Of a stretch of 64,000 nucleotides of DNA, positions 44,311 to 56,335 are shown in pieces. This DNA comes from a virus: the IMG/VR virus record IMGVR_UViG_3300028833_000003; one strand, 5' to 3'. Under the pieces are notes generated by a model, which had not been told where the DNA came from, ran no database searches, and saw only the letters and a program-made list of their open reading frames with translations. The position numbers and the translations under genes are program-made. Position 1 is the stretch's first letter; every line of letters starts with the position of its first letter.

Positions 44311-44378
44311 TCCGCGGCCCTTTGCTTTGGGCCGGTCGCGCGCGGGCGTGCGCGACCGGAGTTGGCCTGCGTAATAGT
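44311..44378. repeat. GC-rich intergenic element, copy E3
   Basis: ...GGCCGGTCGCGCGCGGGCGTGCGCGACCGG..., with a 9-bp stem CCGGTCGCG/CGCGACCGG. Confidence 0.5.
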
Positions 44379-44384
44379 CTTGTA

Positions 44385-44612
44385 ATAATTTTGTAACAAA
44401 TTCGTAACACTTTTGTAACAAAATTGTAATCCCGAAATTGTTACGAAAGTATTAAATTTTTATTACAAAAATTTAATACTTTTTTAATAATATTTAATAA
44501 TTATAAGAAAAGAATAAAAAATCGTGGAAAAATGCGATTTAACATAATCTTAATACTTTTGTAACACTTTTGTAACAAAAAAAGTGATTTTGTAACACTT
44601 TTTTAACAAAAA
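44385..44612. repeat. AT-rich GTAACA/TGTTAC box cluster 1
   Basis: Exact GTAACA at 44393, 44404, 44415, 44561, 44572 and 44592. TGTTAC at 44439. 14-bp perfect inverted repeat AGTATTAAATTTTT/AAAAATTTAATACT at 44448-44480. Confidence 0.8.
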
Positions 44613-44616
44613 ACGC

Positions 44617-44694: not shown

Positions 44695-45201
44695 ATGATG
44701 ATGAACCGGAATTACAATCCCGCGTGCGCGATGAACAGCCTGTCTTATATGGTTACCAAATACCACAAGCTCTCCGCGTCTCACATTTACTTCTTCGGTT
44801 TTGAGTTTAACGGCGCTGTTTATGCCTACACCAGCAAGAACCTGCCCCGTAAAGTCCTCCGCACTGAAAAGGCTTCCTCTAAGAACGGCGGTTTCCGGCA
44901 AGTCAAGTTCCGCCCCACTAAGTTCTGGAAGATGGACATGATCCTCTCCGGCAAAGCTATCAAGGTCGCTGATATGGCCGACTTTATGGCTCTTGCTCCT
45001 AAGAACAAGGGTTGCAAGTTTGAAATGTGGGTAACTGAAACCTACACCAGCGAAAAGTGGGTCAAGGATAGCGTCCGGTTTGACAAGGCTGGCGATGTGG
45101 TCATCAACGGCGAAAACGTCCAGGTCAAGTTTGAAGGCGCCGAAGTCATCAACGAACGTTCTCTCCGCAATGCTTACTATGATGCGATGGGGCTGGCCTA
45201 A
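44695..45201 (+). CDS. hypothetical early protein (168 aa)
   Basis: ATG follows GAAGGGG. The ORF-track start 44617 lies in the -35. The TAA lies in the loop of hairpin 45186-45209. Confidence 0.7.
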   Translation: MMMNRNYNPACAMNSLSYMVTKYHKLSASHIYFFGFEFNGAVYAYTSKNLPRKVLRTEKASSKNGGFRQVKFRPTKFWKMDMILSGKAIKVADMADFMALAPKNKGCKFEMWVTETYTSEKWVKDSVRFDKAGDVVINGENVQVKFEGAEVINERSLRNAYYDAMGLA

Positions 45202-45237
45202 GCCCCATCCATCCCGGGCCCTATATGAAAAAAACTA

Positions 45238-45266
45238 TTGACAAAATCCAAATTATATGATATAAT
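45238..45266 (+). promoter_or_regulatory. promoter P15
   Basis: TTGACA, 17 nt, TGa+TATAAT. Confidence 0.8.
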
Positions 45267-45298
45267 CCAAATGTACCAAGAGAAAGGAAGTAATGAGA

Positions 45299-45736
45299 AT
45301 GACAAAGGCAATTTGGTTCGATATGGATGGCACAATCGCTGACCTATATGCGGTGGATGGCTGGCTGGCTGACCTGCAAGCGGAAAATACAAGGCCCTAT
45401 GATGAAGCGAAAGTGATGCACAATATGGCAAGGCTGGCGCGATTGCTGAACACTTTACAGCGCAATGGCTACACCATCGGCATTATCAGCTGGACCAGCA
45501 AATGCGGTTCTGACCTCTACAATGGCGCGGTCGCTCTGTCAAAACTCTGCTGGCTGAACAAACACTTGCACAGTGTCCAGTGGGATGAAATCAAGATTGT
45601 AAAGTATGGCACTAACAAGCGTGAAACCTGCGGAGATGGTATCTTGTTTGATGATGAAGAAGGAAACCGCAAGGCATGGGGCGAAAATGCTTATACACCT
45701 GACAAGATTTGGGAAGTGCTGACTGCTCTGCGGTGA
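45299..45736 (+). CDS. HAD-superfamily phosphatase, 5'(3')-deoxyribonucleotidase-like (145 aa)
   Basis: Motif I FDMDGTIAD (DxDGT) and a late LFDDEE acidic motif. The second ATG lies 8 nt after AAAGGAAG. Confidence 0.6.
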   Translation: MTKAIWFDMDGTIADLYAVDGWLADLQAENTRPYDEAKVMHNMARLARLLNTLQRNGYTIGIISWTSKCGSDLYNGAVALSKLCWLNKHLHSVQWDEIKIVKYGTNKRETCGDGILFDDEEGNRKAWGENAYTPDKIWEVLTALR

Positions 45737-45780
45737 AGCACTCCCAAACCCGGGCGCGAAAAAAAATTTTTAAAAACCTA

Positions 45781-45809
45781 TTGACAAAATCGCAATCATG
45801 CCTTATAAT
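45781..45809 (+). promoter_or_regulatory. promoter P16, with no ORF behind it
   Basis: TTGACA, 17 nt, TATAAT. Only about 55 nt lie between it and the next promoter. The transcript would start AATAACTGTCAAGAGGACGAGGGCGCGTCC (hairpin GGACG/CGTCC). Confidence 0.65.
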
Positions 45810-45868
45810 AATAACTGTCAAGAGGACGAGGGCGCGTCCCTGAGAGAAAAAAATCTCTTCAAACCCTC

Positions 45869-45897
45869 TTGACAAACCCTCAAAAGTATGGTACAAT
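45869..45897 (+). promoter_or_regulatory. promoter P17, with no credible ORF behind it
   Basis: TTGACA, 17 nt, TGg+TACAAT. Downstream there is only ATG-GTC-TAA, then about 100 nt before P18. Confidence 0.6.
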
Positions 45898-46012
45898 GAA
45901 CAAGACGAAAGGGGATGAGCCAAATGGTCTAAGCAAGCGTGGTGTGGGTGTGGGATGAGAAGCCCAACACAACAAGACCGCAAAAGTTCTCAAAAAAAGT
46001 TTCAAAAACCTC

Positions 46013-46041
46013 TTGACAAACCCAACCAACCATGATATAAT
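46013..46041 (+). promoter_or_regulatory. promoter P18
   Basis: TTGACA, 17 nt, TGa+TATAAT. Leader hairpin GTTCCAAGGGAAC at 46048-46060. Confidence 0.8.
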
Positions 46042-46117
46042 AAAGATGTTCCAAGGGAACAACAAAAACAAAAGGCAAGCGGATAAGCCCCACAAACCGC
46101 AGAAAGGAATTGATACT

Positions 46118-46492
46118 ATGACTACCACCATCACCAACATCTCTGCTCTGAACACTGCTATCGAAACTCTGACCGCTGTCGAAGGTATGGAAGAGGTTGT
46201 AACCAAGCTGACCAACATCAAGGCTTCTTATGAGAAGCGTGCGTCTGCGGAGCGCAAGCCCACCAAGGCGCAGATTGCCAAGAAGGAAGAGAACGCCGCT
46301 TTTGCGGAGGAAGTCTTTGAAGCAATCAAGGAAACTCCTGCGACTGCCAAGGCTCTGGCTGAGCGGTTCGCTGTCACTCCGCAGAAGATGACTTCTGCTC
46401 TGGTCGCTCTGCGCAAGGCTGGGCGCATCAATGACAAGGAACAGGAAAAGAAGTCCTGGCCTCACATCTGGCAGGTGGCTGTGGGCGCGTAA
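46118..46492 (+). CDS. winged-helix-like early protein, paralog 1 of 4 (124 aa)
   Basis: Shares ...EKR(A/S)..ERKPTKAQ..K.EEN... and the C-terminal S/TPxK(M/L)T(S/A)xL segment with 47412, 51857 and 53469. ATG follows GAAAGGAA. Confidence 0.7.
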   Translation: MTTTITNISALNTAIETLTAVEGMEEVVTKLTNIKASYEKRASAERKPTKAQIAKKEENAAFAEEVFEAIKETPATAKALAERFAVTPQKMTSALVALRKAGRINDKEQEKKSWPHIWQVAVGA

Positions 46493-46526
46493 GCGCCCCA
46501 GCCCTGGGCCCGGGCGAAAAAACTTC

Positions 46527-46555
46527 TTGACAAATCAATAGCAACATGATATAAT
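46527..46555 (+). promoter_or_regulatory. promoter P19
   Basis: TTGACA, 17 nt, TGa+TATAAT. Confidence 0.8.
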
Positions 46556-46581
46556 AATCATGTTGAAAGGAGCTGAACCAA

Positions 46582-47055
46582 ATGAACGCTATTCCCTCTC
46601 TTGACATTGTAAAAGAACTTGAACCGCTGACCGCTGTAGTGCGCGAGTTCGTAAAGAGCTTTGATGAAGAGTATGATGCTGTGCTTGGCCCTGGCTTCAT
46701 GGCTAACATGGACGAAGATGTAGTTGTCTATTCAATCGCAATGTCTGATGCTGGCGGGCAATCCTTCCGCGACAACTTTGTAAAGCGCTTTCCTAAGTGC
46801 GATTGTCTTTCAACCTTTGCGCTGTCTCTGTTCCATGAGGTTGGACACCTTGAAACAGAATGGGACATGGACGATGATGTGGAATTGCGCAACAGCGACA
46901 AGATGGACGATGAAACATACTATAATTTGCACAATGAGTGGATAGCTACACAATTCGCTGGTGAATGGGCCACTTCTCATTTGGAAAAAGCAAAACAATT
47001 TGATTTGAAATTCAATGAGGTTGCCCGCGCGATTATTGGCCGACTTTTGGATTGA
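46582..47055 (+). CDS. HExxH-motif protein, putative zinc metallopeptidase-like (157 aa)
   Basis: Contains LFHEVGHLE. GAAAGGAG RBS. Confidence 0.4.
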   Translation: MNAIPSLDIVKELEPLTAVVREFVKSFDEEYDAVLGPGFMANMDEDVVVYSIAMSDAGGQSFRDNFVKRFPKCDCLSTFALSLFHEVGHLETEWDMDDDVELRNSDKMDDETYYNLHNEWIATQFAGEWATSHLEKAKQFDLKFNEVARAIIGRLLD

Positions 47056-47065
47056 AAATTGAAAC

Positions 47066-47087
47066 CGCCCTTTTGTAGGGCGTTTTT
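47066..47087 (+). terminator. rho-independent terminator
   Basis: Stem CGCCC/GGCG(G) with a 7-nt loop, followed by a T5 run. Confidence 0.65.
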
Positions 47088-47089
47088 CA

Positions 47090-47190
47090 TTTTCATTTTC
47101 CCATTGCCCTCGGCCGGGCCGCGCGCGGTCGCCCAGGCTGCGTGCGGGCCGCATTTGCGCACCAACAGGCCCAACACAAAACCAAAACCA
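47090..47190. repeat. GC-rich intergenic element, copy E4
   Basis: ...CGGCCGGGCCGCGCGCGGTCGCC...GCGGGCCGCATTTGCGCACC...CCCAACACAAAACC... Confidence 0.5.
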
Positions 47191-47234
47191 AAATCAGCGA
47201 GCGAAAAAAATTTTAAAAAAATCCTAAAAACCTA

Positions 47235-47263
47235 TTGACAGGCACCCCATTTGGTGATATACT
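47235..47263 (+). promoter_or_regulatory. promoter P20, with no ORF behind it
   Basis: TTGACA, 17 nt, TGa+TATACT. The transcript would start with hairpin TGTTCCTGAGGGGAACA (47269-47285). About 70 nt before P21. Confidence 0.6.
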
Positions 47264-47331
47264 TATATTGTTCCTGAGGGGAACAGAAACGAAAAACCAA
47301 AAATGAAATTAAAAAAAATTTCAAAATGGTC

Positions 47332-47360
47332 TTGACAAACTGCTCACCCTCTGGTATAAT
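47332..47360 (+). promoter_or_regulatory. promoter P21
   Basis: TTGACA, 17 nt, TGg+TATAAT. Confidence 0.8.
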
Positions 47361-47411
47361 AAAAGAGAAGAAAGGGAAGGACACCCTACAAACCAGAAAG
47401 GAATTGATACC

Positions 47412-47777
47412 ATGACTAACAAAATGACTTACTCTGATGCCCTCCGCAACGCTATCGCCACTGTCACTGATGAAGCTACCAAGTCCCGCCTTGAAGATTT
47501 GCTGGTTTCCATTGAAAAGCGTTCCAACTCTGAGCGCAAGCCCACCAAGGCCCAGCTGGAAAAGCAGGAAGAAAACAAGGCCCTGGCTGAGGTTGTGTTC
47601 AAGGTGCTGTCTGCTCACAGGGTTGAAGCTTCTGTCGCTGAGCTGAAAAAGCTGGACGATCAGCTTGTCGATCTGTCCTCCCCTAAGCTGACCGCTGTGC
47701 TGAAAATCCTGATCGACCAGAACAAGGTTTCTAAGGATGACAGTGGAAGGGTTGCCAAGTACATCGCCCTTGACTAA
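47412..47777 (+). CDS. winged-helix-like early protein, paralog 2 of 4 (121 aa)
   Basis: Closest to the 53469 copy (…KKLDD.(L/F)VDLSSPK(L/I)TA(V/L)LKIL(I/M)D(Q/E)N…DDSGRVA(K/R)Y). Followed by a 10-bp hairpin with a GAAA loop (47784-47807). Confidence 0.75.
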   Translation: MTNKMTYSDALRNAIATVTDEATKSRLEDLLVSIEKRSNSERKPTKAQLEKQEENKALAEVVFKVLSAHRVEASVAELKKLDDQLVDLSSPKLTAVLKILIDQNKVSKDDSGRVAKYIALD

Positions 47778-47841
47778 CAAACAGAGGGCAGGGGAAACCC
47801 TGCCCTCCTCCCGCCCCGGGCCGAGAACCTTAAAAAAACTA

Positions 47842-47870
47842 TTGACAAGCTGACAATCCTGTGCTATAAT
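47842..47870 (+). promoter_or_regulatory. promoter P22
   Basis: TTGACA, 17 nt, TGc+TATAAT. Confidence 0.8.
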
Positions 47871-47905
47871 CTTATTGAAATCAATACGAAAGAGATGATG
47901 ACAAA

Positions 47906-48481
47906 ATGACAAGAGCAGAAATTATCGCCAATAATAATTTTGAAATCGCCAAAGAAAAATTTGAAAATGCAAGTCTGAGATGGTCTAATTATTGGTGGGA
48001 AGCTTGCGAAAAAATTTATAATGCAAGTAAAGAATGGGCAGAAAAATATATTCTTGATCCAGTAAAGCGTATTATCAAAAGAATTAAAAGAGTTTTAGGT
48101 GGCATTGATTGGAATGGTTTTGAACCCTTCCCGCATGGAGTACAGCAATTTTATTTGATTAGATTATTAAATGCCGAAGGTGAAAATGTTTGGAATAAAA
48201 TCGGCACTACATCTCGAGCAACATACATTCGCATGAAAGACCATCTAAAAAACGCTGACTATCGTAAGCATGGAGTAAAAACTATTCAAATCATCGGCCT
48301 GTGGGATTGTAAAAATGTAGACGCTGAAATTATTGAAAATCGCGTGCGCAAATATTTACGCAAAGATTACGAACAGCAATTCGTCCCAAATGATCGTTTT
48401 GAAATAGAATTTGATATTCCCTCCCTGTCTAAAATGATAGAAGAGACAATTGCATTTGAAAATAGTTTTATGTATAATTAA
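47906..48481 (+). CDS. T5orf172/GIY-YIG-like domain protein (191 aa) in an AT-rich insert
   Basis: The C-terminal half reads FYLIRLL..GE.VWNKIGTTSR...RMKDHL...AE.IE..VRKYL...NDRFE, which fits the KIGxT...R...E...F pattern of T5orf172 (recollection). Markedly more AT-rich than its neighbours. Confidence 0.45.
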   Translation: MTRAEIIANNNFEIAKEKFENASLRWSNYWWEACEKIYNASKEWAEKYILDPVKRIIKRIKRVLGGIDWNGFEPFPHGVQQFYLIRLLNAEGENVWNKIGTTSRATYIRMKDHLKNADYRKHGVKTIQIIGLWDCKNVDAEIIENRVRKYLRKDYEQQFVPNDRFEIEFDIPSLSKMIEETIAFENSFMYN

Positions 48482-48489
48482 AAAAGGGA

Positions 48490-48518
48490 TTGACAAATCC
48501 CTTCCCATGTAGTATAAT
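48490..48518 (+). promoter_or_regulatory. promoter P23
   Basis: TTGACA, 17 nt, TATAAT. Confidence 0.75.
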
Positions 48519-48544
48519 AATGGTGTTGAAAGGAGCTGATAAAC

Positions 48545-48694
48545 ATGGCGAACAAGAGCAAAAGCAAAGTCAAGAATAGCTATGAAATCAACAAAGGCAT
48601 TCGGCGCGATTGGGGCAACATCAACCCTGTTACAAAAATCATACCAGACAAGCGCAACAAGAAACCTAAGCACAAAAAAAATTGGGAAGAGTGA
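48545..48694 (+). CDS. small basic protein (49 aa, below the ORF-track cutoff)
   Basis: ATG follows GAAAGGAG. K/R-rich. TGA stop. Confidence 0.6.
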   Translation: MANKSKSKVKNSYEINKGIRRDWGNINPVTKIIPDKRNKKPKHKKNWEE

Positions 48695-48704
48695 TACACA
48701 CCTA

Positions 48705-48733
48705 TTGACAAATTTAAAAAAATGTGATATAAT
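48705..48733 (+). promoter_or_regulatory. promoter P24
   Basis: TTGACA, 17 nt, TGa+TATAAT. Confidence 0.8.
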
Positions 48734-48765
48734 AATTATAGAAAATCAGAAAGGAAGTGTGCGTA

Positions 48766-49215
48766 ATGGCAAAGCAACAGCGGCAACCCACTCCACCTAC
48801 CAGAGAATGGATTGATGAATGGATTGACAAGTATTTGGAAGAGCATCCAAATGAAATCATTGAAGATTTCCAAGGGCTGGAAGATCAAGCTGACTATGAG
48901 TGGTGGTGCAAAGAGATTGACGCAGGACGCCCCACACCTTACGACTTGACCAAAGAGCAAGAAAAGGAAAGCCACAAAGCAAGAGTAACGCCTGGCGGAA
49001 GTGGCAAGCCCAAGGCAAACACTGAGCGCAAGCGCAAGCCCAATGACACAAAGAGAACCATTATCGGCTGGGTTCAAACCTTGTTTGAAGGTTTCGCTCT
49101 TAATGACAAAGTGGCTAATGTGATTGTCTCCAATGTTGAAAGGTCAATAGATTTTGAAATGGATGGCAAGCATTATACATTGAGCCTGACAGAGCATCGC
49201 CCACCTAAAAAGTGA
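48766..49215 (+). CDS. early protein, family B paralog 1 of 2 (149 aa)
   Basis: Shares EQAD(Y/C)EW..K..DAG....YDLTKEQEKE..KA...RKRKP and the C-terminal ...HRPPK with 53968..54396. Confidence 0.7.
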   Translation: MAKQQRQPTPPTREWIDEWIDKYLEEHPNEIIEDFQGLEDQADYEWWCKEIDAGRPTPYDLTKEQEKESHKARVTPGGSGKPKANTERKRKPNDTKRTIIGWVQTLFEGFALNDKVANVIVSNVERSIDFEMDGKHYTLSLTEHRPPKK

Positions 49216-49262
49216 GCGGTGCTTTTTTTCGGCCCGGGCCAAAAATTTTTTTCGCAAACCTA

Positions 49263-49291
49263 TTGACAAACCTCTTTCAGAGTGCTATAAT
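49263..49291 (+). promoter_or_regulatory. promoter P25 (sole promoter for the five genes 49328-50495)
   Basis: TTGACA, 17 nt, TGc+TATAAT. Leader hairpin GTTCCAAGGGAAC at 49298-49310. Confidence 0.8.
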
Positions 49292-49327
49292 AACATTGTT
49301 CCAAGGGAACAGAAAGGAAGTAAAATT

Positions 49328-49564
49328 ATGAAACCTATCAAAATTGCTGGCACTGTCTTTGATGCTGATGCACTTTCTATTGAAGCAATTGATGCGTTAA
49401 TTGAAAAACTTGAAGAAGCAAAATGCACACAACGCCGCAAAAAGGCAGAAGAATACGCAGAGAAAATTCATAACTTAATTATCGAAGCAAAACAGCAAGA
49501 TTTAAATGTGATGATTGACAATGAATGGATCCCTGATGATTTCAGAGTTGATGTTTATATCTGA
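49328..49564 (+). CDS. hypothetical early protein (78 aa)
   Basis: GAAAGGAAG RBS. Confidence 0.7.
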   Translation: MKPIKIAGTVFDADALSIEAIDALIEKLEEAKCTQRRKKAEEYAEKIHNLIIEAKQQDLNVMIDNEWIPDDFRVDVYI

Positions 49565-49599
49565 TAATACAAATAAGCAATAGAAAGGAAATAAAAGCA

Positions 49600-49815
49600 A
49601 TGTATAAAACAACTTGGATGATCACTGATGAAAGTGATGAAGGCACATTCCAGACAGAGCTGACCTTGTATCATTTTGGCAAGCGTCCCAAGTTCCCTCG
49701 CTGGTACATGGGAGAAAATCATTCTTATCAGATTGAAATGATTTGGAATTTCCATCTGATTGTTCGCCCTTCTATTTTCTTTAAATGCCTGACCCATCAA
49801 TACATTATCAGATGA
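49600..49815 (+). CDS. hypothetical early protein (71 aa)
   Basis: GAAAGGAAA RBS. Confidence 0.6.
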   Translation: MYKTTWMITDESDEGTFQTELTLYHFGKRPKFPRWYMGENHSYQIEMIWNFHLIVRPSIFFKCLTHQYIIR

Positions 49816-49830
49816 AAGGAAGTATCCACA

Positions 49831-50115
49831 ATGAGAGACGCGAAAAAAGGAACTTATAATGATAGTTATACTTATTGCCCTGTTAATGCGTATGGAGATT
49901 GTCCTTACTGTGACCAAAGTGATGTATGCCACATCGATGATCCTCTCAAAGATTGCGATGACTGGGGCGCGTTTTGGGAGAGCTGGGAAGACTGGCTAAA
50001 CGCTGATGATGCAAACCCTGATGCACCAGAGGATTTTGCGGAAGATGAAATCCGCTGGGCTGGTGATGTGTATGGCTATGAAGATACAATGGAGGACAAC
50101 AATGAATACTTATGA
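49831..50115 (+). CDS. very acidic, Trp-rich small protein with an N-terminal Cys cluster (94 aa)
   Basis: GAAAGGAAG RBS. CPxxxxxxCPYC...C...C, followed by a D/E/W-rich tail. Confidence 0.7.
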   Translation: MRDAKKGTYNDSYTYCPVNAYGDCPYCDQSDVCHIDDPLKDCDDWGAFWESWEDWLNADDANPDAPEDFAEDEIRWAGDVYGYEDTMEDNNEYL

Positions 50116-50275
50116 AATCATGATTAATTATCTTAACTATGTATTTCCAAACAGAAAATTTAGTAAAGAATATTTAGACATCCTTTACGCTATCTTTATA
50201 AAGGGATATGGCGAAGGCGAACTCGCGGGAGAAATTGAAGCAAATAAATATTGGAGCGAAAGGAAAGAAAAATAA
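50102..50275 (+). CDS. hypothetical early protein (57 aa)
   Basis: ATG lies 5 nt after GGAGGA and overlaps the upstream gene by 14 nt. Confidence 0.5.
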   Translation: MNTYEIMINYLNYVFPNRKFSKEYLDILYAIFIKGYGEGELAGEIEANKYWSERKEK

Positions 50276-50279
50276 ATAA

Positions 50280-50495
50280 ATGTATAATTATAATAATGAC
50301 CCATTTGCGAAGGGCACACAAAAATATCAACAAGAGATAGTCGCAAAAGCATTAAATGACCATTTGCTCAAATGTGTTAAAAATAGTTATTGGTGCGCTC
50401 ATTGCTCTCTAAATCATAGTGGCATCTGCTTTTTTGCAAAAGAATGTTTTGAGAATGATCGAAAATATTATAGAGAAGATGATGAGGAGGAATAA
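50280..50495 (+). CDS. Cys-rich small protein (71 aa)
   Basis: ORF with a weak AAGGAAAG RBS and an acidic C-terminus. Confidence 0.55.
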   Translation: MYNYNNDPFAKGTQKYQQEIVAKALNDHLLKCVKNSYWCAHCSLNHSGICFFAKECFENDRKYYREDDEEE

Positions 50496-50535
50496 ACTTC
50501 TCATTTTGCCCGGGCCAAAAAATTTCAAAAAAGTA

Positions 50536-50564
50536 TTGACAAGCTGAAACAAATGCTGTATAAT
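50536..50564 (+). promoter_or_regulatory. promoter P26
   Basis: TTGACA, 17 nt, TGt+ATAAT. The leader GTAATCAAGAGGAGGTAATCAA is nearly identical to that of P27. Confidence 0.8.
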
Positions 50565-50593
50565 AGCTATGTAATCAAGAGGAGGTAATCAAG

Positions 50594-50746
50594 ATGAAGA
50601 CTTTGAAGGTGCTGGCTGTGATTGGTTGCTTACTGACTATCTGGGGTCTGGTGTGGGGTATCTTCATCAAAGATTTCATTTGGGGTGCGTTTGTTGGTCT
50701 GGCGCTAATAATGCCTTATCTGGTTTGGGGAGATGAGGAAGAATGA
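50594..50746 (+). CDS. small membrane protein (50 aa)
   Basis: AGAGGAGG RBS. Two hydrophobic segments. TGA overlaps the next ATG (ATGA). Confidence 0.65.
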   Translation: MKTLKVLAVIGCLLTIWGLVWGIFIKDFIWGAFVGLALIMPYLVWGDEEE

Positions 50747-50901
50747 AAAGAAGTCTTTACAAGCGTTATGATGATTTAGCCTGCTGGGATTTGGACAAAG
50801 GATGTAGGCGCATCATTGACCAGTCTCGACCTGGTAGGCGTCGCCTGAAAAAGGTTCTTCGGCGTCAAGCGCGCAAGCGGTTAAATCAGCGGGAAGAATA
50901 A
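50743..50901 (+). CDS. small Arg/Lys-rich protein (52 aa)
   Basis: ATGA-coupled to the upstream gene. Confidence 0.5.
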   Translation: MKRSLYKRYDDLACWDLDKGCRRIIDQSRPGRRRLKKVLRRQARKRLNQREE

Positions 50902-50933
50902 CCGCCCGGGCGAAAAAAATTTCTAAAAAGCTA

Positions 50934-50962
50934 TTGACAACCTATCAAGATGGTGCTATAAT
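50934..50962 (+). promoter_or_regulatory. promoter P27
   Basis: TTGACA, 17 nt, TGc+TATAAT. Confidence 0.8.
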
Positions 50963-50991
50963 AAGCATGTAATCAAGAGGAGGTAATCAAA

Positions 50992-51507
50992 ATGACTAAG
51001 AACACTTACGAAGCTCGCGCCTATAAGTTCGCCACTTTCCTTGCTCGTCTGTTTGCTGGTTGCTCTTCTCTGGAAGATTTCATGTGGGCGCTGGACTATT
51101 ACAACGCTACGCACTCTCGCAAACTGCGCTGGGCGCATGGTGTTTCTCGCATTGCGATTATCCGCTCTGACTATGTTATCAAGTTTAACATGGTGCCTGA
51201 TGAAGAATGGGAAGATGGTCGCGCTGGCAACTGCGAAAGCGAAGAAGCGGTCTATGAGCGCGCCTGCGAAGATGGCTTTGAGTATCTGCTGGCTAAAACC
51301 ACTGTTTGCACCATCGAAGAACACACTTTCTCTATCATGCCTCGCATTAACCATGTGAATGATTGGACACGCGACTGGACAGAGTATTGCACTGATGAAG
51401 AATATAACTGGCTGGTGCAAAATGTGAATGACTTGCATGAAGGTAATGTGGGATACAGAAATCGAAAAGTGTGCGTAATCGACTACGCCTGGGACGCGGA
51501 AATGTAA
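50992..51507 (+). CDS. atypical protein-kinase-like early protein (171 aa)
   Basis: Contains DLHEGNVG....VCVIDYA, which looks like a DxHxGN catalytic loop plus a DFG-like IDY, and an upstream VIKF Lys. The TAA lies in a hairpin loop (51496-51512). Confidence 0.4.
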   Translation: MTKNTYEARAYKFATFLARLFAGCSSLEDFMWALDYYNATHSRKLRWAHGVSRIAIIRSDYVIKFNMVPDEEWEDGRAGNCESEEAVYERACEDGFEYLLAKTTVCTIEEHTFSIMPRINHVNDWTRDWTEYCTDEEYNWLVQNVNDLHEGNVGYRNRKVCVIDYAWDAEM

Positions 51508-51595
51508 TCCGCGCCCTTTTGCGTTCGACCGCGCGCTGCCGGATGTGGCGCGCGGCATTTGCCCCACAGCATACCCCACACAATTTTCGGCGCGA
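51508..51595. repeat. GC-rich intergenic element, copy E5
   Basis: ...CGACCGCGCGCTGCCGGATGTGGCGCGCGGCATTTGCCCCACAGCATACCCCACACAATTTT... Confidence 0.5.
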
Positions 51596-51637
51596 AAAAA
51601 AGTTCAAAAAAAACTTCAAAAAAATTCCTAAAACCTA

Positions 51638-51666
51638 TTGACAAGACCAGCGAAAGCGAGTATAAT
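51638..51666 (+). promoter_or_regulatory. promoter P28, with no credible ORF behind it
   Basis: TTGACA, 17 nt, TATAAT. The transcript would start AATAACTGTCAGGAGGG, the same 5' end as P16. About 100 nt before P29. Confidence 0.6.
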
Positions 51667-51768
51667 AATAACTGTCAGGAGGGCAAGAGAACATCCTCTC
51701 CCCTGATGGCACTGGCAAGGACGCTCTGACAAGATGCGGAAACTTCAAAAAAAAGTTTGAAAAACCCC

Positions 51769-51797
51769 TTGACAAAGCGCTGAAAGTGTGATACAAT
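51769..51797 (+). promoter_or_regulatory. promoter P29
   Basis: TTGACA, 17 nt, TGa+TACAAT. Confidence 0.75.
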
Positions 51798-51856
51798 AAG
51801 GATGTCAAATGAAGGGGAGCTGATAAACCCCACAAACAGAGAAAGAGGTAGATACC

Positions 51857-52240
51857 ATGATGAACACCAAGATGACTAACAAGAGCGCTCTGTCCTTTGT
51901 CCTGACCAACTGCGAAGTGCCTGCGGATGTCAAGGAGCGTCTGGAAGCGATGCTGGCTTCCCTTGAAAAGCGTTCTGAGAACGCCAAGGGCAAGGAGCGC
52001 AAGCTGTCTCCCAAGCAGGAGCAGGAGCGCAAGGAGCGTGAGGAGTTCCGCTCCAAGGTGTATGAGACTATGTGTGAGAACCTGAACTTCGAATACACCT
52101 GCAAGGGTCTGGCTGACCTGTTCGCTGTCTCTTCTCCCAAGATGGCGAACGCTCTGACCAAGCTGGTTGAAGCTGGCAAGGTTGAGCGTCTGGTTTCCAC
52201 CACCAACAAGTCCAAGGTGTGGTTCAAGGTGGTAGCGTAA
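51857..52240 (+). CDS. winged-helix-like early protein, paralog 3 of 4 (127 aa)
   Basis: Divergent copy (…LEKRSENAKGKERKLSPKQEQE…SSPKMANALTKL…). The TAA lies in the GTAA loop of the 9-bp hairpin 52228-52249. Confidence 0.7.
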   Translation: MMNTKMTNKSALSFVLTNCEVPADVKERLEAMLASLEKRSENAKGKERKLSPKQEQERKEREEFRSKVYETMCENLNFEYTCKGLADLFAVSSPKMANALTKLVEAGKVERLVSTTNKSKVWFKVVA

Positions 52241-52297
52241 GCTACCACCGCCCCACCTGGGGCGCGCCGGGGCCGAAAAAAAATTTTTAAAAACCTA

Positions 52298-52326
52298 TTG
52301 ACAAAGCTTTAAAACCGCTGTATAAT
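52298..52326 (+). promoter_or_regulatory. promoter P30
   Basis: TTGACA, 17 nt, TGt+ATAAT. Confidence 0.8.
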
Positions 52327-52372
52327 AAACATGTTCCAAGTGAGAACAAAAGAAAGAAAGGATTTGATAACA

Positions 52373-53029
52373 ATGGCTTCTAAGTATAATGACATTTTTG
52401 GTGATACTGAGACGCTGGGTCCGCTGGATAGCCCCATCATTTACAATGGTTACATGCATTGCAGGGAAACAGATGAAGAAGTAAATGCACTGATTAATGA
52501 ATATTTCTTCAACCTTGAAAAATTCGCCACAGCGTATTATGCAAACAAGCGTCCGCAATATTTGGACGATTTGTGGGACAGCAAAATCTTTGCTGAAAAT
52601 TTTTGGGACTTCCGCAAAAAAGTGCTTGCCATGCTCAACCCCAATAAAAAGAACAGATTTTTCGCTCACAATGCGAGATTTGATGTTATGGCATTGAATA
52701 ACACTTGCAGAGCGTTAAGCGATGGAAAAGTGAAATATTTCTTCCCCTATGAAGTTGAAGTTTGTGATACTCTCAAAATGGCGCGTCAAGTTGTCGCAAA
52801 AATGCCCACCTACATCAAATACTGTCAAGAGAATGGATACATGACCAAGCACAAGACGCCCAGGGTTCGCCTGACCGCTGAAATTCTTTACAGATTTATT
52901 ACAAAAGATGAAGAATTTAATGAAGAGCACAGAGGGAAAGAAGATGTTCTGATCGAAGAAAAAATTTATGACTACATCAAGAGACAGCATAAAAAGTGCA
53001 ATCCTGCGCTCTACGCCCGCAAGGCATGA
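52373..53029 (+). CDS. DnaQ-like DEDDh 3'-5' exonuclease (218 aa)
   Basis: ExoI GDTETLG, ExoII FFAHNARFDV and ExoIII EHRGKEDV (H-x4-D). ATG follows GAAAGGA. Confidence 0.55.
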   Translation: MASKYNDIFGDTETLGPLDSPIIYNGYMHCRETDEEVNALINEYFFNLEKFATAYYANKRPQYLDDLWDSKIFAENFWDFRKKVLAMLNPNKKNRFFAHNARFDVMALNNTCRALSDGKVKYFFPYEVEVCDTLKMARQVVAKMPTYIKYCQENGYMTKHKTPRVRLTAEILYRFITKDEEFNEEHRGKEDVLIEEKIYDYIKRQHKKCNPALYARKA

Positions 53030-53081
53030 GCGCAGGCGGCCCGGGCCGAAAATTGTATACAAAAAAAATTTCAAAAACCTA

Positions 53082-53110
53082 TTGACAAGAACCTGAATCA
53101 GCAGTATAAT
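53082..53110 (+). promoter_or_regulatory. promoter P31, with no credible ORF behind it
   Basis: TTGACA, 17 nt, TATAAT. The transcript would start with hairpin GTCCC/GGGAC. About 130 nt before P32. Confidence 0.6.
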
Positions 53111-53239
53111 ATAAGTGTCCCAAGGGGCAAGGGACAGTCAAGGCCAGGTTGCCGAAAGTCAACAGAGACAATACGCATGGACTACAGAAACATTTGGCCA
53201 TTAGCAAACACAATGTGCGAAAAAAGTTTGCGAAACCCC

Positions 53240-53268
53240 TTGACAAAGCCCACAACCTGTGGTATAAT
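53240..53268 (+). promoter_or_regulatory. promoter P32, with no credible ORF behind it
   Basis: TTGACA, 17 nt, TGg+TATAAT. About 120 nt before P33, with no ATG after the AAAGGAAAGGGG. Confidence 0.6.
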
Positions 53269-53391
53269 GCAAATGTAAGATAAAGGAAAGGGGAAAAATA
53301 AAAAGCCACCCCAATCCCAATGCGCAAAAATGCAAGGCTTTGCTTCCATGTGCTTCTTACAAAGTCAAGAAATAAAAAATAAAAAAAGTTC

Positions 53392-53420
53392 TTGACAAAC
53401 ACCACAAAGCATGATATAAT
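53392..53420 (+). promoter_or_regulatory. promoter P33
   Basis: TTGACA, 17 nt, TGa+TATAAT. Leader hairpin TGTTCCAAGAGAACA at 53426-53440. Confidence 0.8.
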
Positions 53421-53468
53421 AAAGATGTTCCAAGAGAACAAAAGGAAAAAAAGAAAGAGGTAATGAAA

Positions 53469-53858
53469 ATGACTAACATCACCAAGAACATGAAGTACGC
53501 TGACATCCTCTCCATCCTGCATGGCGAAAATCCTGCCTATGGTTGCTCCATCGAAACTCTGACCGCTTTCATCGAACATGAAATGGAACTGACCGCGAAA
53601 AAGAACGCGGCTCCCAAGAAGCCTTCCAAGGCTCAGGTGGAGAAGCAGGAGGAGAACAAGGTTCTCGCTCAGACGCTGTTTGAAGTCCTCGCGGCTCATG
53701 GTAAGGATGTAAGCGTCGCGGAAATCAAGAAACTGGATGATCGCTTTGTGGATCTGTCCTCTCCCAAAATCACTGCGCTGTTGAAAATCCTGATGGATGA
53801 AAACCGCATGGTCAAAGATGATAGCGGAAGGGTGGCAAGGTATCAGGTTCTCGCCTGA
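53469..53858 (+). CDS. winged-helix-like early protein, paralog 4 of 4 (129 aa)
   Basis: The second ATG lies 8 nt after AGAGG. Close paralog of 47412..47777. Confidence 0.75.
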   Translation: MTNITKNMKYADILSILHGENPAYGCSIETLTAFIEHEMELTAKKNAAPKKPSKAQVEKQEENKVLAQTLFEVLAAHGKDVSVAEIKKLDDRFVDLSSPKITALLKILMDENRMVKDDSGRVARYQVLA

Positions 53859-53910
53859 TACCTCCGCCCCTCGCGGGCCCGGGCGCGAAAAAAACATTTT
53901 CAAAAAGGTA

Positions 53911-53939
53911 TTGACAAGCTGATTGCAAGGTGCTATAAT
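53911..53939 (+). promoter_or_regulatory. promoter P34
   Basis: TTGACA, 17 nt, TGc+TATAAT. Confidence 0.8.
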
Positions 53940-53967
53940 AGAACCATCGAAAGGAGCTGATGACAGT

Positions 53968-54396
53968 ATGACGAAGGAACAGTACATTGAACAGTATCTC
54001 GATGAGTATGAGCGCAAGCACCCTGATGAACGAATTGATTATGAAAAGTTGCGTGAGCAGGCTGACTGTGAATGGTATGACAAGCAGGTAGATGCAGGCA
54101 AGAAGACTGAATACGATTTGACCAAGGAGCAAGAGAAGGAAGCCAAGAAGGCTCGACAGTATGCCAAGTCTGACAAGGAGCGCAAGAAGGTTGTGCGGGA
54201 GCGCAAGCCTGATGAGGACAAGCGCGAAATCATCGAAGTCATTGCACAGAATTTGAAGCGCGTTTGTACTGAGGATGACCAAATGGCAAAGGAAATCACT
54301 GTTGTAAATCCTGAGCGTGAAGTCACCTTTATTTTGCGGGGCGTTGAATACAGCGTCCAGGTTATCAAGCATAGACCGCCCAAGGCCCCTCAGTGA
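53968..54396 (+). CDS. early protein, family B paralog 2 of 2 (142 aa)
   Basis: ATG follows GAAAGGAG. The TGA lies within hairpin 54384-54402. Confidence 0.7.
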   Translation: MTKEQYIEQYLDEYERKHPDERIDYEKLREQADCEWYDKQVDAGKKTEYDLTKEQEKEAKKARQYAKSDKERKKVVRERKPDEDKREIIEVIAQNLKRVCTEDDQMAKEITVVNPEREVTFILRGVEYSVQVIKHRPPKAPQ

Positions 54397-54432
54397 GGGG
54401 CCGCCCGGGCGAAAAAAAATTTTTAAAAAGTA

Positions 54433-54461
54433 TTGACAAGTGCGCGAATGGATGCTATAAT
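54433..54461 (+). promoter_or_regulatory. promoter P35
   Basis: TTGACA, 17 nt, TGc+TATAAT. Leader hairpin at 54467-54484. Confidence 0.8.
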
Positions 54462-54500
54462 AATGGTGTTCCAAGAGAGAACAGAAAGGGCTGATAAAGA

Positions 54501-55419: not shown

Positions 55420-55510
55420 CGCAGGCGCCCGCTTGTTTTTCGCCCGGCCGAGCACCATACGTGCGCAGGCCGCAATTTTGTCAAGACTAACCCCACACAA
55501 TTTTTACGCA
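55420..55510. repeat. GC-rich intergenic element, copy E6
   Basis: ...CGCCCGGCCGAGCACCATACGTGCGCAGGCCGCAATTTTG...AACCCCACACAATTTTT. Confidence 0.5.
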
Positions 55511-55745
55511 AATTTTACGATTTTGTTACAATTCTGTTAATTTTCCCGAAACTTTTGTTACAAAAGTATTAAATTTTTGTTACAAATTATTAAATTTTTA
55601 TTAAATTTTTGTAATAATTGTAATAATTTTGTAATATTTTAAATTGTTACGAAAGTATTGCGAAATTGTTACAGATTTATTACGAAATTGTTACAAAACT
55701 TAACAAAATCGTAACATTTTTGTAACATTTGACCCACTTTTGTAA
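55505..55745. repeat. AT-rich TGTTAC/GTAACA box cluster 2 (homologous to cluster 1)
   Basis: TGTTAC at 55524, 55556, 55578, 55645, 55667 and 55689. GTAACA at 55711 and 55722. Shares TCCCGAAA.TTGTTAC.AAAGTATTAAATTTTT and AAATTGTTACGAAAGTATT with 44430-44462. Confidence 0.8.
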
Positions 55746-55756
55746 AAATTTGGCCC

Positions 55757-56113
55757 CATATGCACCTGGGCGGCGCGTTCACGCGCCATATGCGCCGCGC
55801 CCACGAATTAATGCTAATGCTACACTCATATGCGCCGAAAATGCGGCATCCGCGGGCACGCAGATAATTTCCCTTAATCCATATGAAATCGCCGCGTTTT
55901 TTCTTGCGCACGATTACAGAATCGCAAGAAGCACCAATGACCCTCATATGCTCTCATTTCCTGACCACGGGCGTAGCAAAATCTTCCCCTCTCTGAGCCC
56001 ATTTTAAGACAAAGGGAGCGACCCGACCGGGTTTTCCACTTATCTATTAATAACCCGACCGGTGCGCATACTTTTTTCCACACTACCGACCGGGTTTTCC
56101 ATAGTCCCATATG
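55757..56113. repeat. dispersed (C/T)CATATGC motif, six copies in non-coding DNA
   Basis: Copies near 55757, 55786, 55826, 55879, 55945 and 56107. Confidence 0.5.
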
Positions 56114-56296: not shown

Positions 56297-56307
56297 CTGC
56301 ACATTAT

Positions 56308-56335
56308 TAAAAGGAGCCACATATGTGTGGCTCCT
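56308..56335 (-). terminator. terminator of the leftward 175-aa gene (hairpin usable on both strands)
   Basis: 10-bp stem AGGAGCCACA/TGTGGCTCCT with a 4-nt loop and T-runs on both sides. Confidence 0.7.

Follow-up and report, generated by a model that had tools for sequence, protein, structure and literature searches.

The window analysed here, 64,000 nucleotides from an uncultivated gut phage that recodes TAG in its late genes, contains an early block of 15-16.5 kb in which almost every gene has its own promoter. Our promoter scan identified 36 sigma-70/sigma-A-type promoters in this block, all on the + strand, 31 of them perfect and five with one mismatch, when an arithmetic estimate gives ~0.001 perfect sites by chance; loose promoter matches numbered 97, compared with 31.5 +/- 6.9 in shuffles. 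Ten of the 36 early promoters lie in stacks of two or three co-oriented promoters ahead of genes for winged-helix paralogs, and each is built from an UP-like A/T tract followed by a -35 and a -10 that a 17-bp spacer separates, with an extended -10 TG in most cases. An earlier note had described six perfect promoters in these stacks that drive no ORF. All six coordinates were correct, and the sites at 45781, 51638, 53082 and 53240 match TTGACA-17-TATAAT at 12/12 positions, but those at 45869 (TACAAT) and 47235 (TATACT) each carry one mismatch (11/12). The predicted +1 of these six orphans lies 53, 109, 62, 96, 123 and 117 nt from the next -35, in agreement with the 55-130 nt previously given.

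In stack A, the distal promoter P16 (45781-45809, +; TTGACA-17-TATAAT, 12/12) has CCCGGGC and an UP-like element rich in A/T upstream of it, and 28/29 positions of its core are identical in the relatives L043 and L044. The first 10 nt of the module transcribed from P16 (45816-45874, +; predicted dG -24.2 kcal/mol for 45816-45880), TGTCAAGAGG (45816-45825), are the exact complement of CCTCTTGACA (45865-45874), the -35 of P17 with its flank, and the stem formed by the two encloses two small hairpins; the same 10 nt are also exactly complementary to the -35 and flank of P18. The P16 module contains a Shine-Dalgarno-like AAGAGGA without a start codon, and its interior varies in L043 and L044. The middle promoter P17 (45869-45897, +; TTGACA-17-TACAAT, 11/12; core 27-28/29 identical in relatives) is followed, as noted earlier, by a two-codon mini-ORF, ATG GTC TAA (45924-45932, +), behind the Shine-Dalgarno site GAAAGGGGA. 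Real genes at 46527, 48490 and 53911 have a leader of the same type, and the mini-ORF is invariant in L043, L044 and L045, while the spacer ahead of it varies. The gene-proximal promoter P18 (46013-46041, +; 12/12; 29/29 identical in L044) leads into the paralog A leader (46048-46117, +), which carries a 5' hairpin, GTTCCAAGGGAAC, a GCGG...CCGC hairpin and the conserved ribosome-binding region AGAAAGGAATTGATACTATG. This leader is 76/76 identical to L044, while the gene for paralog A itself (124 aa; 46118-46492, +) is 83.7% identical, and a 22-mer of the leader occurs in 35 stretches of IMG/VR contigs.

Stack B lies just downstream of a + strand intrinsic terminator (47066-47082) found in our terminator scan. 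The transcript of its distal promoter P20 (47235-47263, +; TTGACA-17-TATACT, 11/12) opens at the predicted +1 with the hairpin GTTCCTGAGGGGAAC (GTTCC...GGAAC; 47270-47284, +), which has GAGGGGA in and beside its loop and which in L044 is replaced by a TGTCAAGAGG-type module. The gene-proximal promoter P21 (47332-47360, +; 12/12) and paralog B (121 aa; 47412-47777, +), the paralog whose structure was modelled, complete this stack. In stack C, the transcript of the distal promoter P28 (51638-51666, +; 12/12) begins with a stem-loop, TGTCAGGAGGG...CCTCTCCCCTGATGGCA (51673-51711, +; -15.3 kcal/mol for the first 40 nt), predicted to sequester a Shine-Dalgarno-like AGGAGGG, and P29 (51769-51797, +; TTGACA-17-TACAAT, 11/12) is proximal to paralog C (127 aa; 51857-52240, +). 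Stack D has three promoters. The distal promoter P31 (53082-53110, +; 12/12) is followed from its predicted +1 by the 5'-terminal hairpin GTCCC-AAGGGGCAA-GGGAC (53117-53135, +), and the transcript of the middle promoter P32 (53240-53268, +; 12/12) starts with a polypurine run, GTAAGATAAAGGAAAGGGGA; further on, GTCAAGAA (53360-53367) is an inverted copy of TTCTTGAC at the -35 of the gene-proximal promoter P33 (53392-53420, +; 12/12), which is followed by the hairpin GTTCCAAGAGAAC. Paralog D (129 aa; 53469-53858, +) likely starts at 53469 because of the Shine-Dalgarno spacing, although an in-frame ATG also occurs at 53463.

The claim that every winged-helix paralog gene is preceded by such a stack holds, with a stack ahead of 4/4 paralogs compared with 0/26 other genes of the block (Fisher p = 3.6e-5). 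On related phage contigs, at least one ORF-less promoter was found upstream of 40/55 winged-helix genes but only 17/351 other genes (odds ratio 52, p = 2e-29, with loci that are phylogenetically non-independent), and the enrichment holds even where paralog identity between phages is no more than 30-40%. Since the remaining 15/55 winged-helix genes have a single promoter by the criteria of the analysis, stacking is not obligatory. Although Pfam matches of the paralogs themselves were sub-threshold, some of their homologs carry HTH_24, TrmB, HTH_20 or MarR_2, and the AlphaFold2 model of paralog B (pLDDT 92.3) has a C-terminal winged helix, with ArsR/SmtB, CzrA, BlaI/MecI/CopR and Fur as its best PDB matches.

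Promoters and transcribed pieces are conserved to different degrees. Relative to L044, in which coding regions are 79-87% identical to the window, the P16, P17 and P18 cores are 97-100% identical, compared with 81% (with indels) for the P16 piece and 85% for the P17 piece. The P20 core and piece are only 60-66% identical to L044, which has a module of another type there and retains the distal promoter; this P20 module swap is seen in an 81%-identical relative. Likewise, the orphan segment differs between L046 and L051, although the paralog that they encode is identical. The contrast between constant cores and drifting or replaced pieces suggests selection on the promoters rather than on the RNA. 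For the P31 and P32 pieces, identity to the available relatives is 96-99%; these relatives, whose genomes are mosaic, are too similar or too mosaic to reveal constraint on those RNAs. In L046 (70% identical), three of the four distal promoters are weaker (e.g. TTGTTT-17-GATAAT and TTGATT-17-TATAAT) and GTTACA/TTAACA repeat arrays precede three of the four, a hint that these promoters may be regulated and not simply add to one another. Across 81 distinct orphan-to-next distances and all adjacent promoter pairs examined, the minimum promoter spacing was 85 bp, approximately one polymerase footprint, and the main mode of the orphan distances was 85-99 bp.

ORF checks of the P17, P28, P31 and P32 segments bore out the claim that these short stretches lack a credible start codon and RBS pair. 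Apart from the P17 mini-ORF, the candidates were a 7-codon ATG ORF in the P28 segment and a 20-codon ATG ORF in the P32 segment, both without a Shine-Dalgarno site, and a 44-codon TTG ORF in the P31 segment (53149-53283) that has a weak Shine-Dalgarno site, crosses promoter P32 and shows non-synonymous changes in relatives; none is credible as a gene. The terminator scan detected no + strand intrinsic terminator in 45781-46118, 47235-47412, 51638-51857 or 53082-53469, so transcripts from the upstream promoters should all reach the gene.

The earlier note had also proposed that the orphan transcripts begin with conserved or structured 5' ends. These ends are real: the P16 and P28 transcripts share the start AATAACTGTCA(A/G)GAGG, and the P20 and P31 hairpins are present as described. 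However, they are not specific to orphans, because they also occur at gene-driving promoters of these phages: six such promoters in the window have the GTTCC hairpin, and in relatives the TGTCAAGAGG start also serves real genes as their ribosome-binding site. The transcribed pieces open with a Shine-Dalgarno-like run lacking a start codon and/or with a 5'-end stem. A Shine-Dalgarno-like 5-mer lies within the first 28 nt of 45/59 orphans (12.2 +/- 3.0 in shuffles), with an ATG after it in only seven of the 59 and resulting ORFs of 2-8 codons. Hairpins at the 5' terminus were found in 3% of short-leader, 20% of long-leader and 30% of orphan transcripts, and a clear 5'-terminal stem in only 4/6 window orphans. 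Pairing between a transcript start and the adjacent -35 gave -7.65 kcal/mol, compared with -6.17 +/- 0.28 for re-paired combinations (0/300 permutations as low). When the arms were aligned, 73.1% of cells paired (69.0 +/- 1.1 in shuffles; 0/500) with 11 double changes (6.5 in shuffles; 2/500), A-to-G changes in the 5' arm retained G.U pairs, and positions -36 to -39 of the next promoter co-varied with the start of the upstream transcript. Covariation thus appears to lend modest support to the closing stem, although the A/G pattern in the Shine-Dalgarno-like run would be equally expected from a "purines only" constraint.

Taken together, these data make it reasonably probable that the tandem promoters boost expression of the winged-helix genes and that the pieces between promoters are 5'-UTR modules resembling Firmicute mRNA 5' stabilisers. 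Of the three options offered previously, we favour read-through boosters because of the missing terminators, the conserved cores compared with drifting pieces, the family-wide link and the 85-bp floor; short regulatory RNAs are poorly supported, and decoy promoters are neither supported nor excluded. The six orphans would be the upstream members of tandem promoter units serving each paralog gene, with host sigma-A-type polymerase presumably initiating at every stack promoter. Since nothing terminates between stacked promoters, each initiation event would give mRNA for one gene, and read-through from the distal promoters would be complete. Because single promoters are already at consensus, output could be raised only by more promoters and gene copies, of which there are four paralogs, so that dosage of the winged-helix protein may be the selected trait; this suggests that the phage requires large quantities of a DNA-binding protein at a very early stage. 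Promoter packing would be at the limit set by one promoter-bound polymerase (at least 85 bp). The 53-123-nt pieces would be neither genes nor free-standing RNAs but 5'-UTR modules of long transcripts, whose 5' stems and Shine-Dalgarno-like runs may stabilise mRNA; in modules of the TGTCAAGAGG class, the stem would be closed by the transcribed -35 region of the next promoter. The firing of the promoters, the read-through and the stability of the RNA are all deduced here from the DNA itself, and closely spaced strong promoters can interfere by occlusion, so output is not necessarily additive.

We also considered whether the orphans are scars of recombination between paralog cassettes, in which leftover promoters and ribosome-binding sites are tolerated without being selected. 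Each genome has three or four such cassettes with near-identical promoters and leaders, between which unequal or illegitimate recombination would delete intervening genes or duplicate promoter-leader pieces. Orphan starts are indeed leader types of gene-driving cassettes, including the GTTCC hairpin class; TGTCAAGAGGAGG is a real ribosome-binding site in L046 7385 and L029 6080, the P17 Shine-Dalgarno site, ATG, single codon and stop resemble a truncated gene, the corresponding position in relatives holds ORFs of 2-8 codons or a genuine small gene, and modules are swapped between strains with mosaic genomes. Scars alone nevertheless seem unlikely, given hexamers within one step of consensus and 97-100% conserved beside transcribed sequence that falls to 60-85%, an enrichment that persists among phages with highly diverged paralogs, a spacing floor and mode that indicate constraint, and the co-variation of the next promoter's -36 to -39 with the upstream start. 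A recombination origin is compatible with a present booster function. Slightly less likely again are discrete, ~55-125-nt non-coding RNAs that would act in trans, with host RNAs, late phage RNAs or proteins as targets. In favour are the structured 5' ends, the folding of the P20 and P32 segments, which is more stable than that of shuffles (z = -3.43 and -2.64), and the closed three-way fold of the P16-class module, whose closing-stem complementarity is kept across relatives; such RNAs could conceivably be released through processing, or if transcription ended non-canonically at the closing stem, and the phi29 early promoter A1 does make a non-coding RNA, pRNA. Against this, no stack contains a hairpin and U-tract or other 3'-end signal, stems of 10-13 bp are short for RNase III, the other four segments have z-scores of only -0.03 to -1.35, and interiors are hypervariable and modules exchangeable. 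Moreover, no Rfam family matched at E <= 1 over 40-58 kb, and antisense matches in the 64-kb window did not exceed about 10-14 nt (E > 0.3), the only notable ones being to neighbouring -35 regions. The orphan segments are thus probably not free-standing small RNAs.

The stacks could instead be regulatory targets, at which a winged-helix or other early protein binds and shuts off or times the tandem promoters, much as phi29 p4 and p6 control A2c and A2b, giving differential control rather than dosage. The products, with their repressor-like fold, are winged-helix DNA binders, a proximal promoter and leader are 100% conserved while coding sequence falls to 84%, GTTACA/TTAACA arrays lie ahead of the L046 distal promoters, and in phi29 each of the two tandem early promoters has a p4 site overlapping its -35 (PMC3100819). 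However, no operator-like repeat is common to the four stacks yet absent from other promoters, and GTTACA-type arrays are rarer upstream of winged-helix genes (0.07 compared with 0.40 motifs per 600 nt), so we regard this idea, though compatible with promoter boosting, as improbable. Least probable, in our judgement, is that the extra promoters are polymerase sinks titrating host sigma-A holoenzyme or motors for transcription-driven genome entry. Such roles would fit 36 co-oriented consensus promoters in about 15 kb, and T7 genome entry is completed by transcription from A1, A2 and A3 (PMC13128918), but they would not need placement specifically ahead of winged-helix paralogs, and the 30 gene-driving promoters already supply both effects.

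Parts of the read-through arrangement that we favour have counterparts in known systems. [quoted passage not shown] No sequence relationship to the SPO1 module was detected and PHROGs gave no functional match; here there is approximately one promoter per gene plus a repeated paralog family with stacked promoters, and SPO1 is a myovirus with hydroxymethyluracil DNA, in contrast with a phage that recodes TAG. In Bacilli, the 5' mRNA stabilisers STAB-SD of cryIIIA, the aprE 5' stem-loop and the ermC leader show that a Shine-Dalgarno sequence without a start codon in the 5' UTR and/or a stem-loop at the extreme 5' end protects downstream mRNA (PMC3997798). The orphan modules appear to carry comparable elements, but in the TGTCAAGAGG class the Shine-Dalgarno-like run takes part in the stem, which would set ribosome binding against stem formation, and a promoter -35 element, copied into RNA, supplies the 3' arm. 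We know of no described case of a stem arm formed in this way.

The stacks themselves resemble the three tandem E. coli sigma-70 early promoters A1, A2 and A3 ahead of the T7 early operon (PMC13128918). Both comprise several strong, co-oriented host-type promoters with no gene between them and shared early gene(s) downstream, but T7 has one stack, at the genome end before a long operon, that also drives DNA entry, whereas this phage has a Firmicute-type host and four separate stacks, each before one small paralogous gene, with 5' stems and Shine-Dalgarno-like runs between promoters. T7 A1-A3 are spaced by roughly 100 bp. In phi29, the tandem sigma-A early promoters A2c and A2b drive an operon encoding the DNA-binding proteins p4 and p6, which act back on both promoters (PMC3100819). 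Phi29 is likewise a Firmicute phage with tandem sigma-A early promoters driving genes for DNA-binding proteins, although no homology of the winged-helix paralogs to p4 or p6 was found and the stacks here have neither a divergent late promoter nor an identified operator; by analogy, autoregulation by the paralogs is a conjecture. The stacked-promoter arrangement is therefore already known in kind from T7 A1-A3 and phi29 A2c/A2b, with some unusual details in this phage.

All six promoters reported in the earlier note to drive no ORF (P16, 45781; P17, 45869; P20, 47235; P28, 51638; P31, 53082; P32, 53240; hereafter orphan promoters) were found at those positions. They had been described as perfect, which holds for four of them (12/12 consensus positions) but not for the promoters at 45869 (TACAAT) and 47235 (TATACT), which match at 11/12. 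The distance from the predicted transcription start to the next -35 hexamer was 53-123 nt, in agreement with the 55-130 nt proposed, and no credible gene was present in these gaps: the P17 gap contains the expected ATG GTC TAA mini-ORF behind a ribosome-binding site, and the other small ORFs either lack a Shine-Dalgarno sequence or cross the next promoter. Together with the gene-proximal promoters P18, P21, P29, and P33, the orphans form stacks A-D of 3, 2, 2, and 3 promoters matching the host-sigma consensus, with only mini-ORFs or non-credible ORFs between them. All six orphans lie upstream of the four winged-helix paralog genes (A, 46118-46492; B, 47412-47777; C, 51857-52240; D, 53469-53858; + strand) and none elsewhere in the early block, and the proposal that a stack precedes every one of these paralogs was borne out (4/4 compared with 0/26 other genes of the block, p = 3.6e-5). 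A + strand scan detected no intrinsic-terminator-like site within any stack, Rho-dependent termination and processing being invisible in sequence. In their shared orientation, spacing, and lack of an intervening gene or intrinsic terminator, the stacks correspond to tandem host-type early promoters. A divergent minus-strand promoter built on the inverted TTGACA at +2 to +7 was rejected because its -10 positions, judged by eye, read ATGATT (P16) and CTTTCG (P28).

The window comes from a phage of ~169 kb (contig ENA ERZ27257202 k141_292341) whose late/structural genes (40-40057, minus strand) depend on sense decoding of TAG; only then do ORFs of 2326, 1094, and 4559 codons open there. The + strand early block (40105 to ~55000) uses the standard code, and this division fits the published idea that recoding keeps early and late translation apart (bioRxiv 10.1101/2021.08.26.457843). 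The host is probably a Firmicute, since relatives of the head-protease-like protein come from Bacillus, Enterococcus, and Staphylococcus phages and the gut phage Phass-1. The early block carries 31 perfect and five one-mismatch TTGACA-17-TATAAT promoters, in most cases accompanied by an extended -10 (TG) and by a UP-like, A/T-rich tract, and nearly every small early gene has a promoter of its own. Hidden ORFs under TAG recoding were considered for the stacks and dismissed: no new credible ORF was gained, and the standard code already gives a good reading of the early block. Long minus-strand ORFs over the early block exist in the standard code and grow when TAG is sense (e.g., 47232-47921 becomes 46977-47921); the genes to which they run antisense have promoters and ribosome-binding sites, and we regarded them as artefacts. 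No functional match was found in a PHROGs scan of eight proteins, no match to GenBank phages by megablast of 45000-54500 or by tblastn of paralog B, no relative of the 157-aa neighbour gene in IMG/VR, and no gene in a tRNA/tmRNA scan.

Other repeats and hairpins were observed around these promoters. CCCGGGC occurs ten times (45213, 45749, 46509, 47815, 49233, 50509, 50905, 53040, 53878, and 54404; chance estimate <1), always directly 5' of a promoter's A/T-rich tract and confined to 45.2-54.4 kb; the promoters at 40-44.6 kb are without it. Repeats of TTGTAACA, GTTACA, and TTAACA form dense arrays in A/T-rich DNA at 44370-44615 and 55500-55740 and probably act as recognition sites of a DNA-binding protein. 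In the related locus L046, similar repeats immediately precede three of the four distal winged-helix-stack promoters; as a general partner of the stacks these arrays were rejected, being found with stacks only in the L046 lineage and not enriched upstream of winged-helix genes across the family. The stretch 55740-56330 is non-coding and iteron-like, containing (A)ACCCGACCGG five times as well as repeated CATATG; it may represent a replication origin or a packaging/terminus region. Four strong G+C-rich hairpins (44329-44368, 47115-47151, 51529-51555, and 55445-55472; -16 to -34 kcal/mol) stand at cassette boundaries, two of them directly upstream of stacks B and C; CATTTGC follows two of the four (47152 and 51556) and the variant CAATTTTG follows the one at 55.44 kb. 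These hairpins, which have equivalents with different stems in the related loci L019, L040, and L046, may act as processing sites or as terminators that lack a U-tract. Several gene ends are themselves hairpins with the stop codon in the loop, namely GGGCGC-GTAA-GCGCCC for paralog A (46479-46494), GGTAGC-GTAA-GCTACC for paralog C (52227-52242), and GGGGC-TGGCCTAA-GCCCC for the gene ending at 45201 (45187-45205).

The association of orphan promoters with winged-helix genes extends to related phages. The 22-nt leader segment AGAAAGGAATTGATACYATGAC of the paralogs was located in 35 stretches of ~25 IMG/VR phage contigs of 100-200 kb, and a profile search added five more distant loci; dense consensus promoters were likewise present in all related loci found. 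We counted unique upstream regions and scored as orphan any promoter not followed, ahead of the next promoter, by the start of an ORF with a Shine-Dalgarno sequence and 30 or more codons. On this basis, we found one or two ORF-less promoters upstream of 40 of 55 winged-helix genes compared with 17 of 351 others (odds ratio 52, p = 2e-29); the p-value overstates independence because the loci are interrelated and the gene calls crude, although the effect is still large. Across all adjacent same-strand pairs in the window and 40 loci, promoters are never closer than 85 bp; the distances from orphans to the next promoter peak at 85-99 bp and form additional clusters around 119-134 and 142-152 bp. 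A promoter-bound polymerase with its UP contacts covers ~80 bp; the orphans thus amount to minimal units whose packing is close to the tightest at which neighbours could be occupied at the same time.

We compared stack A with its counterparts in L043 (93.5% identical) and in L044 and L045 (both ~81%). Against a background of 79-87% identity in coding regions, the P16, P17, and P18 cores were 97-100% identical to L044, and the P18 leader was identical at 76/76 positions, compared with ~84% for the gene that it precedes. The P17 transcribed piece showed 85% identity, the background level, and the P16 piece 81% with indels. In stack B, the P20 core and transcribed piece were only 60-66% identical to L044, which carries a TGTCAAGAGG-type module in place of the P20 hairpin module and retains a distal promoter. 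The orphan segment differs internally between L046 and L051, two related loci encoding an identical paralog protein. For stacks C and D, the relatives (L052, L053, and L056) are too close or too mosaic to reveal selection on the P28, P31, and P32 RNAs. What is kept in the orphan RNAs is the 5' start and the closing stem, around variable interiors. Because the cores and the P18 leader are conserved while the transcribed pieces drift or are swapped, these comparisons point to selection on the promoters and the gene-proximal leader, not on the orphan RNA sequences.

The orphan transcripts open like ordinary leaders of these phages. The common P16 and P28 start, AATAACTGTCA(A/G)GAGG, and the hairpins at the P20 and P31 transcript starts, all described in the earlier note, are real; TGTCAAGAGGAGG is the start and ribosome-binding site of real genes in relatives, and a GTTCC...GGAAC hairpin begins six gene-driving transcripts in the window. 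A stem-loop within a few nt of the predicted 5' end is clear in P16, P20, P28, and P31 but not in P17 or P32, and such 5'-terminal hairpins are found in 3% of short-leader, 20% of long-leader, and 30% of orphan transcripts. In all six window orphans, a Shine-Dalgarno-like run lies close to the 5' end and has no usable start codon behind it. Family-wide, a Shine-Dalgarno-like run is retained by 45 of 59 orphans (shuffles, 12.2 +/- 3.0), but in only 7/59 does an ATG follow, opening ORFs of 2-8 codons. In the window, a leader peptide or upstream micro-ORF found no candidate beyond the two-codon ORF of P17, the sole orphan with a Shine-Dalgarno sequence and ATG. Some relatives have orphans before winged-helix genes that carry an 8-codon ORF, MRSPPKRK (ATG AGA AGY CCG CCR AAA AGA AAA TAA), with a good Shine-Dalgarno sequence upstream (L006, 2044; L012, 7674; L014, 10135; L019, 3590; L035, 2520); two changes separate its versions between phages, both synonymous. 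This ORF has no equivalent in the window, where the P32 start looks like that leader with ATG changed to ATA. Other orphans carry ATG ACT TAG or ATG ATT TAG, in which late recoding would read through the TAG.

Complementarity was also seen between transcript starts and downstream -35 regions, most strikingly for P16. Nucleotides 1-10 of its transcript (TGTCAAGAGG) match the reverse complement of CCTCTTGACA exactly, CCTCTTGACA being the -35 and flank of both P17 and P18, and the 65-nt RNA 45816-45880 folds as a closed module (-24.2 kcal/mol); within the P32 transcript, GTCAAGAA pairs with TTCTTGAC from P33. Family-wide, adjacent start/-35 pairs were the more complementary, at -7.65 kcal/mol compared with -6.17 +/- 0.28 kcal/mol after re-pairing (0/300 permutations as low). 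Among 18 distinct arm pairs, 73.1% of cells were paired (69.0 +/- 1.1 in shuffles, 0/500) and 11 double changes were counted, compared with 6.5 (2/500). Matched arm changes include AAGAGG/CCTCTT, AAGGGG/CCCCTT, and AAGAAG/CTTCTT, and A-to-G changes in the 5' arm preserve G.U pairs. When the P16 modules of three relatives were folded together, the closing stem alone was solid and the interior pairs were weak, and this consensus fold was set aside. The evidence for RNA-level selection on the start/-35 pairing is moderate, although a purine-only constraint on the Shine-Dalgarno-like run could mimic part of the signal.

If so, the CCTCTTGACA DNA might serve twice, as -35 hexamer and flank and, in RNA, as the 3' arm closing the upstream transcript's 5' end, with promoter stacking and RNA 5' architecture having co-evolved; we hold this dual use to be possible but rather doubtful. 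The closed module could then do more than cap the 5' end passively: it might be a processing site releasing abundant ~60-nt RNAs, or a switch that hides or exposes the Shine-Dalgarno-like run and recruits or titrates 30S subunits early in infection. That the orphans make discrete small RNAs, an option raised in the earlier note, is unlikely, given that no positive signal of any kind was obtained. The orphan segments contain no hairpin and U-tract that would define a discrete 3' end, and no Rfam match at E <= 1 was found over 40-58 kb. Folding favoured structure in P20 (z = -3.43) and P32 (z = -2.64), but the other four segments folded no better than shuffles. The proposed antisense targets did not emerge: blastn-short of the six segments against the 64-kb window returned only chance matches of 8-14 nt and the neighbouring -35 regions. 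With no terminator, Rfam family, or antisense partner, free-standing regulatory RNAs are poorly supported, and another of the earlier note's options, read-through boosters of the paralog genes, is favoured.

Other accounts concern the promoters themselves. An origin of the orphans as scars of cassette recombination is likely in view of the leader types, truncated ORFs, and module swaps; pure neutrality of such scars is, however, hard to square with conserved consensus hexamers adjoining drifting sequence. Were the promoters to act as a polymerase sink or as a motor for DNA entry, in the manner of T7 A1-A3 (PMC13128918), their placement specifically before the paralogs would go unexplained, and we regard such a role as very improbable. 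By analogy with phi29, whose p4 and p6 proteins target A2c and A2b (PMC3100819), it is attractive to suppose that the winged-helix proteins may autoregulate their own stacks; this would be compatible with tandem boosting, but no shared operator was found in the stacks.

The four genes downstream of the stacks are paralogs with 25-35% identity to one another. Matches to Pfam helix-turn-helix models were all below the gathering score, and the PHROGs were without function. The AlphaFold2 model of paralog B (pLDDT 92.3) predicts three N-terminal helices and a C-terminal winged helix, and its best Foldseek matches were ArsR/SmtB, CzrA, BlaI/MecI/CopR, and Fur (probability ~1, E = 3e-3 to 3e-2), consistent with a winged helix-turn-helix fold for the family. 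Among ~444 metagenome homologs, a few match Pfam HTH_24, TrmB, HTH_20, or MarR_2. Since curated models stay below threshold or lack a function and few homologs match HTH families, the paralogs are a separate, unnamed family with this predicted fold. Their coding sequences (46118-46492 and 53469-53858) are ~84% identical to L044 and L056, compared with 95-100% for the slower-diverging promoters, leaders, and some neighbours, a difference suggestive of diversifying selection or of cassettes being exchanged at conserved flanks. The leaders (46048-46117, 47367-47411, and 51804-51856) contain small hairpins directly upstream of the near-invariant ribosome-binding region AGAAAGGAATTGATACYATGAC. Hairpins of this kind also occur in loci L001, L003, L011, L015, L026, L027, L029, L038, and L046; the stems vary among phages with pairing kept (GGG/CCC, GGTG/CACC, GAGG/CCTC, GGGG/CCCC, GCGG/CCGC, and TCGTG/CACGA) and the loops are conserved (AAGGAAAA or ACCTAC), so that they could be a regulatory RNA element.

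For tandem boosting of the winged-helix genes, we propose that every promoter in a stack would fire and read through into the paralog gene, and that the long 5' UTRs of distal transcripts would be shielded by the 5'-terminal stem and/or the start-less Shine-Dalgarno run. In these two features the orphan modules resemble the 5' mRNA stabilisers of Bacilli (STAB-SD and 5'-terminal stem-loop), the run being present in all six window orphans and the stem clear in four. Because the promoters are already at consensus, higher output would require more promoters (10 of the 36 are in stacks) and more gene copies (four). Such a dosage rule, under which the early protein dose rises only by multiplying promoters and genes, would imply that no early function is expressed more heavily than these paralogs, and that theirs is probably a key one, in a widespread group of uncultivated gut phages that recode TAG; stacks and copies together point to a DNA-binding protein needed early and in bulk. 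The 85-bp limit and the compact promoter/5'-module units would be usable as strong expression parts for Firmicutes in synthetic biology, and the start/-35 complementarity, if functional, would be a neat overlap of DNA and RNA signals.

The early block resembles the SPO1 host-takeover module in general architecture, the sole level at which the two were compared (PMC6873191). Tandem host-type early promoters are already textbook knowledge from T7 and phi29, and our findings extend this theme without overturning current understanding. What is new is the repetition of stacks before each member of one paralog family throughout a lineage of uncultivated TAG-recoding phages, together with the 85-bp packing, the start-less Shine-Dalgarno/5'-stem modules, and the complementarity between transcript starts and -35 regions.
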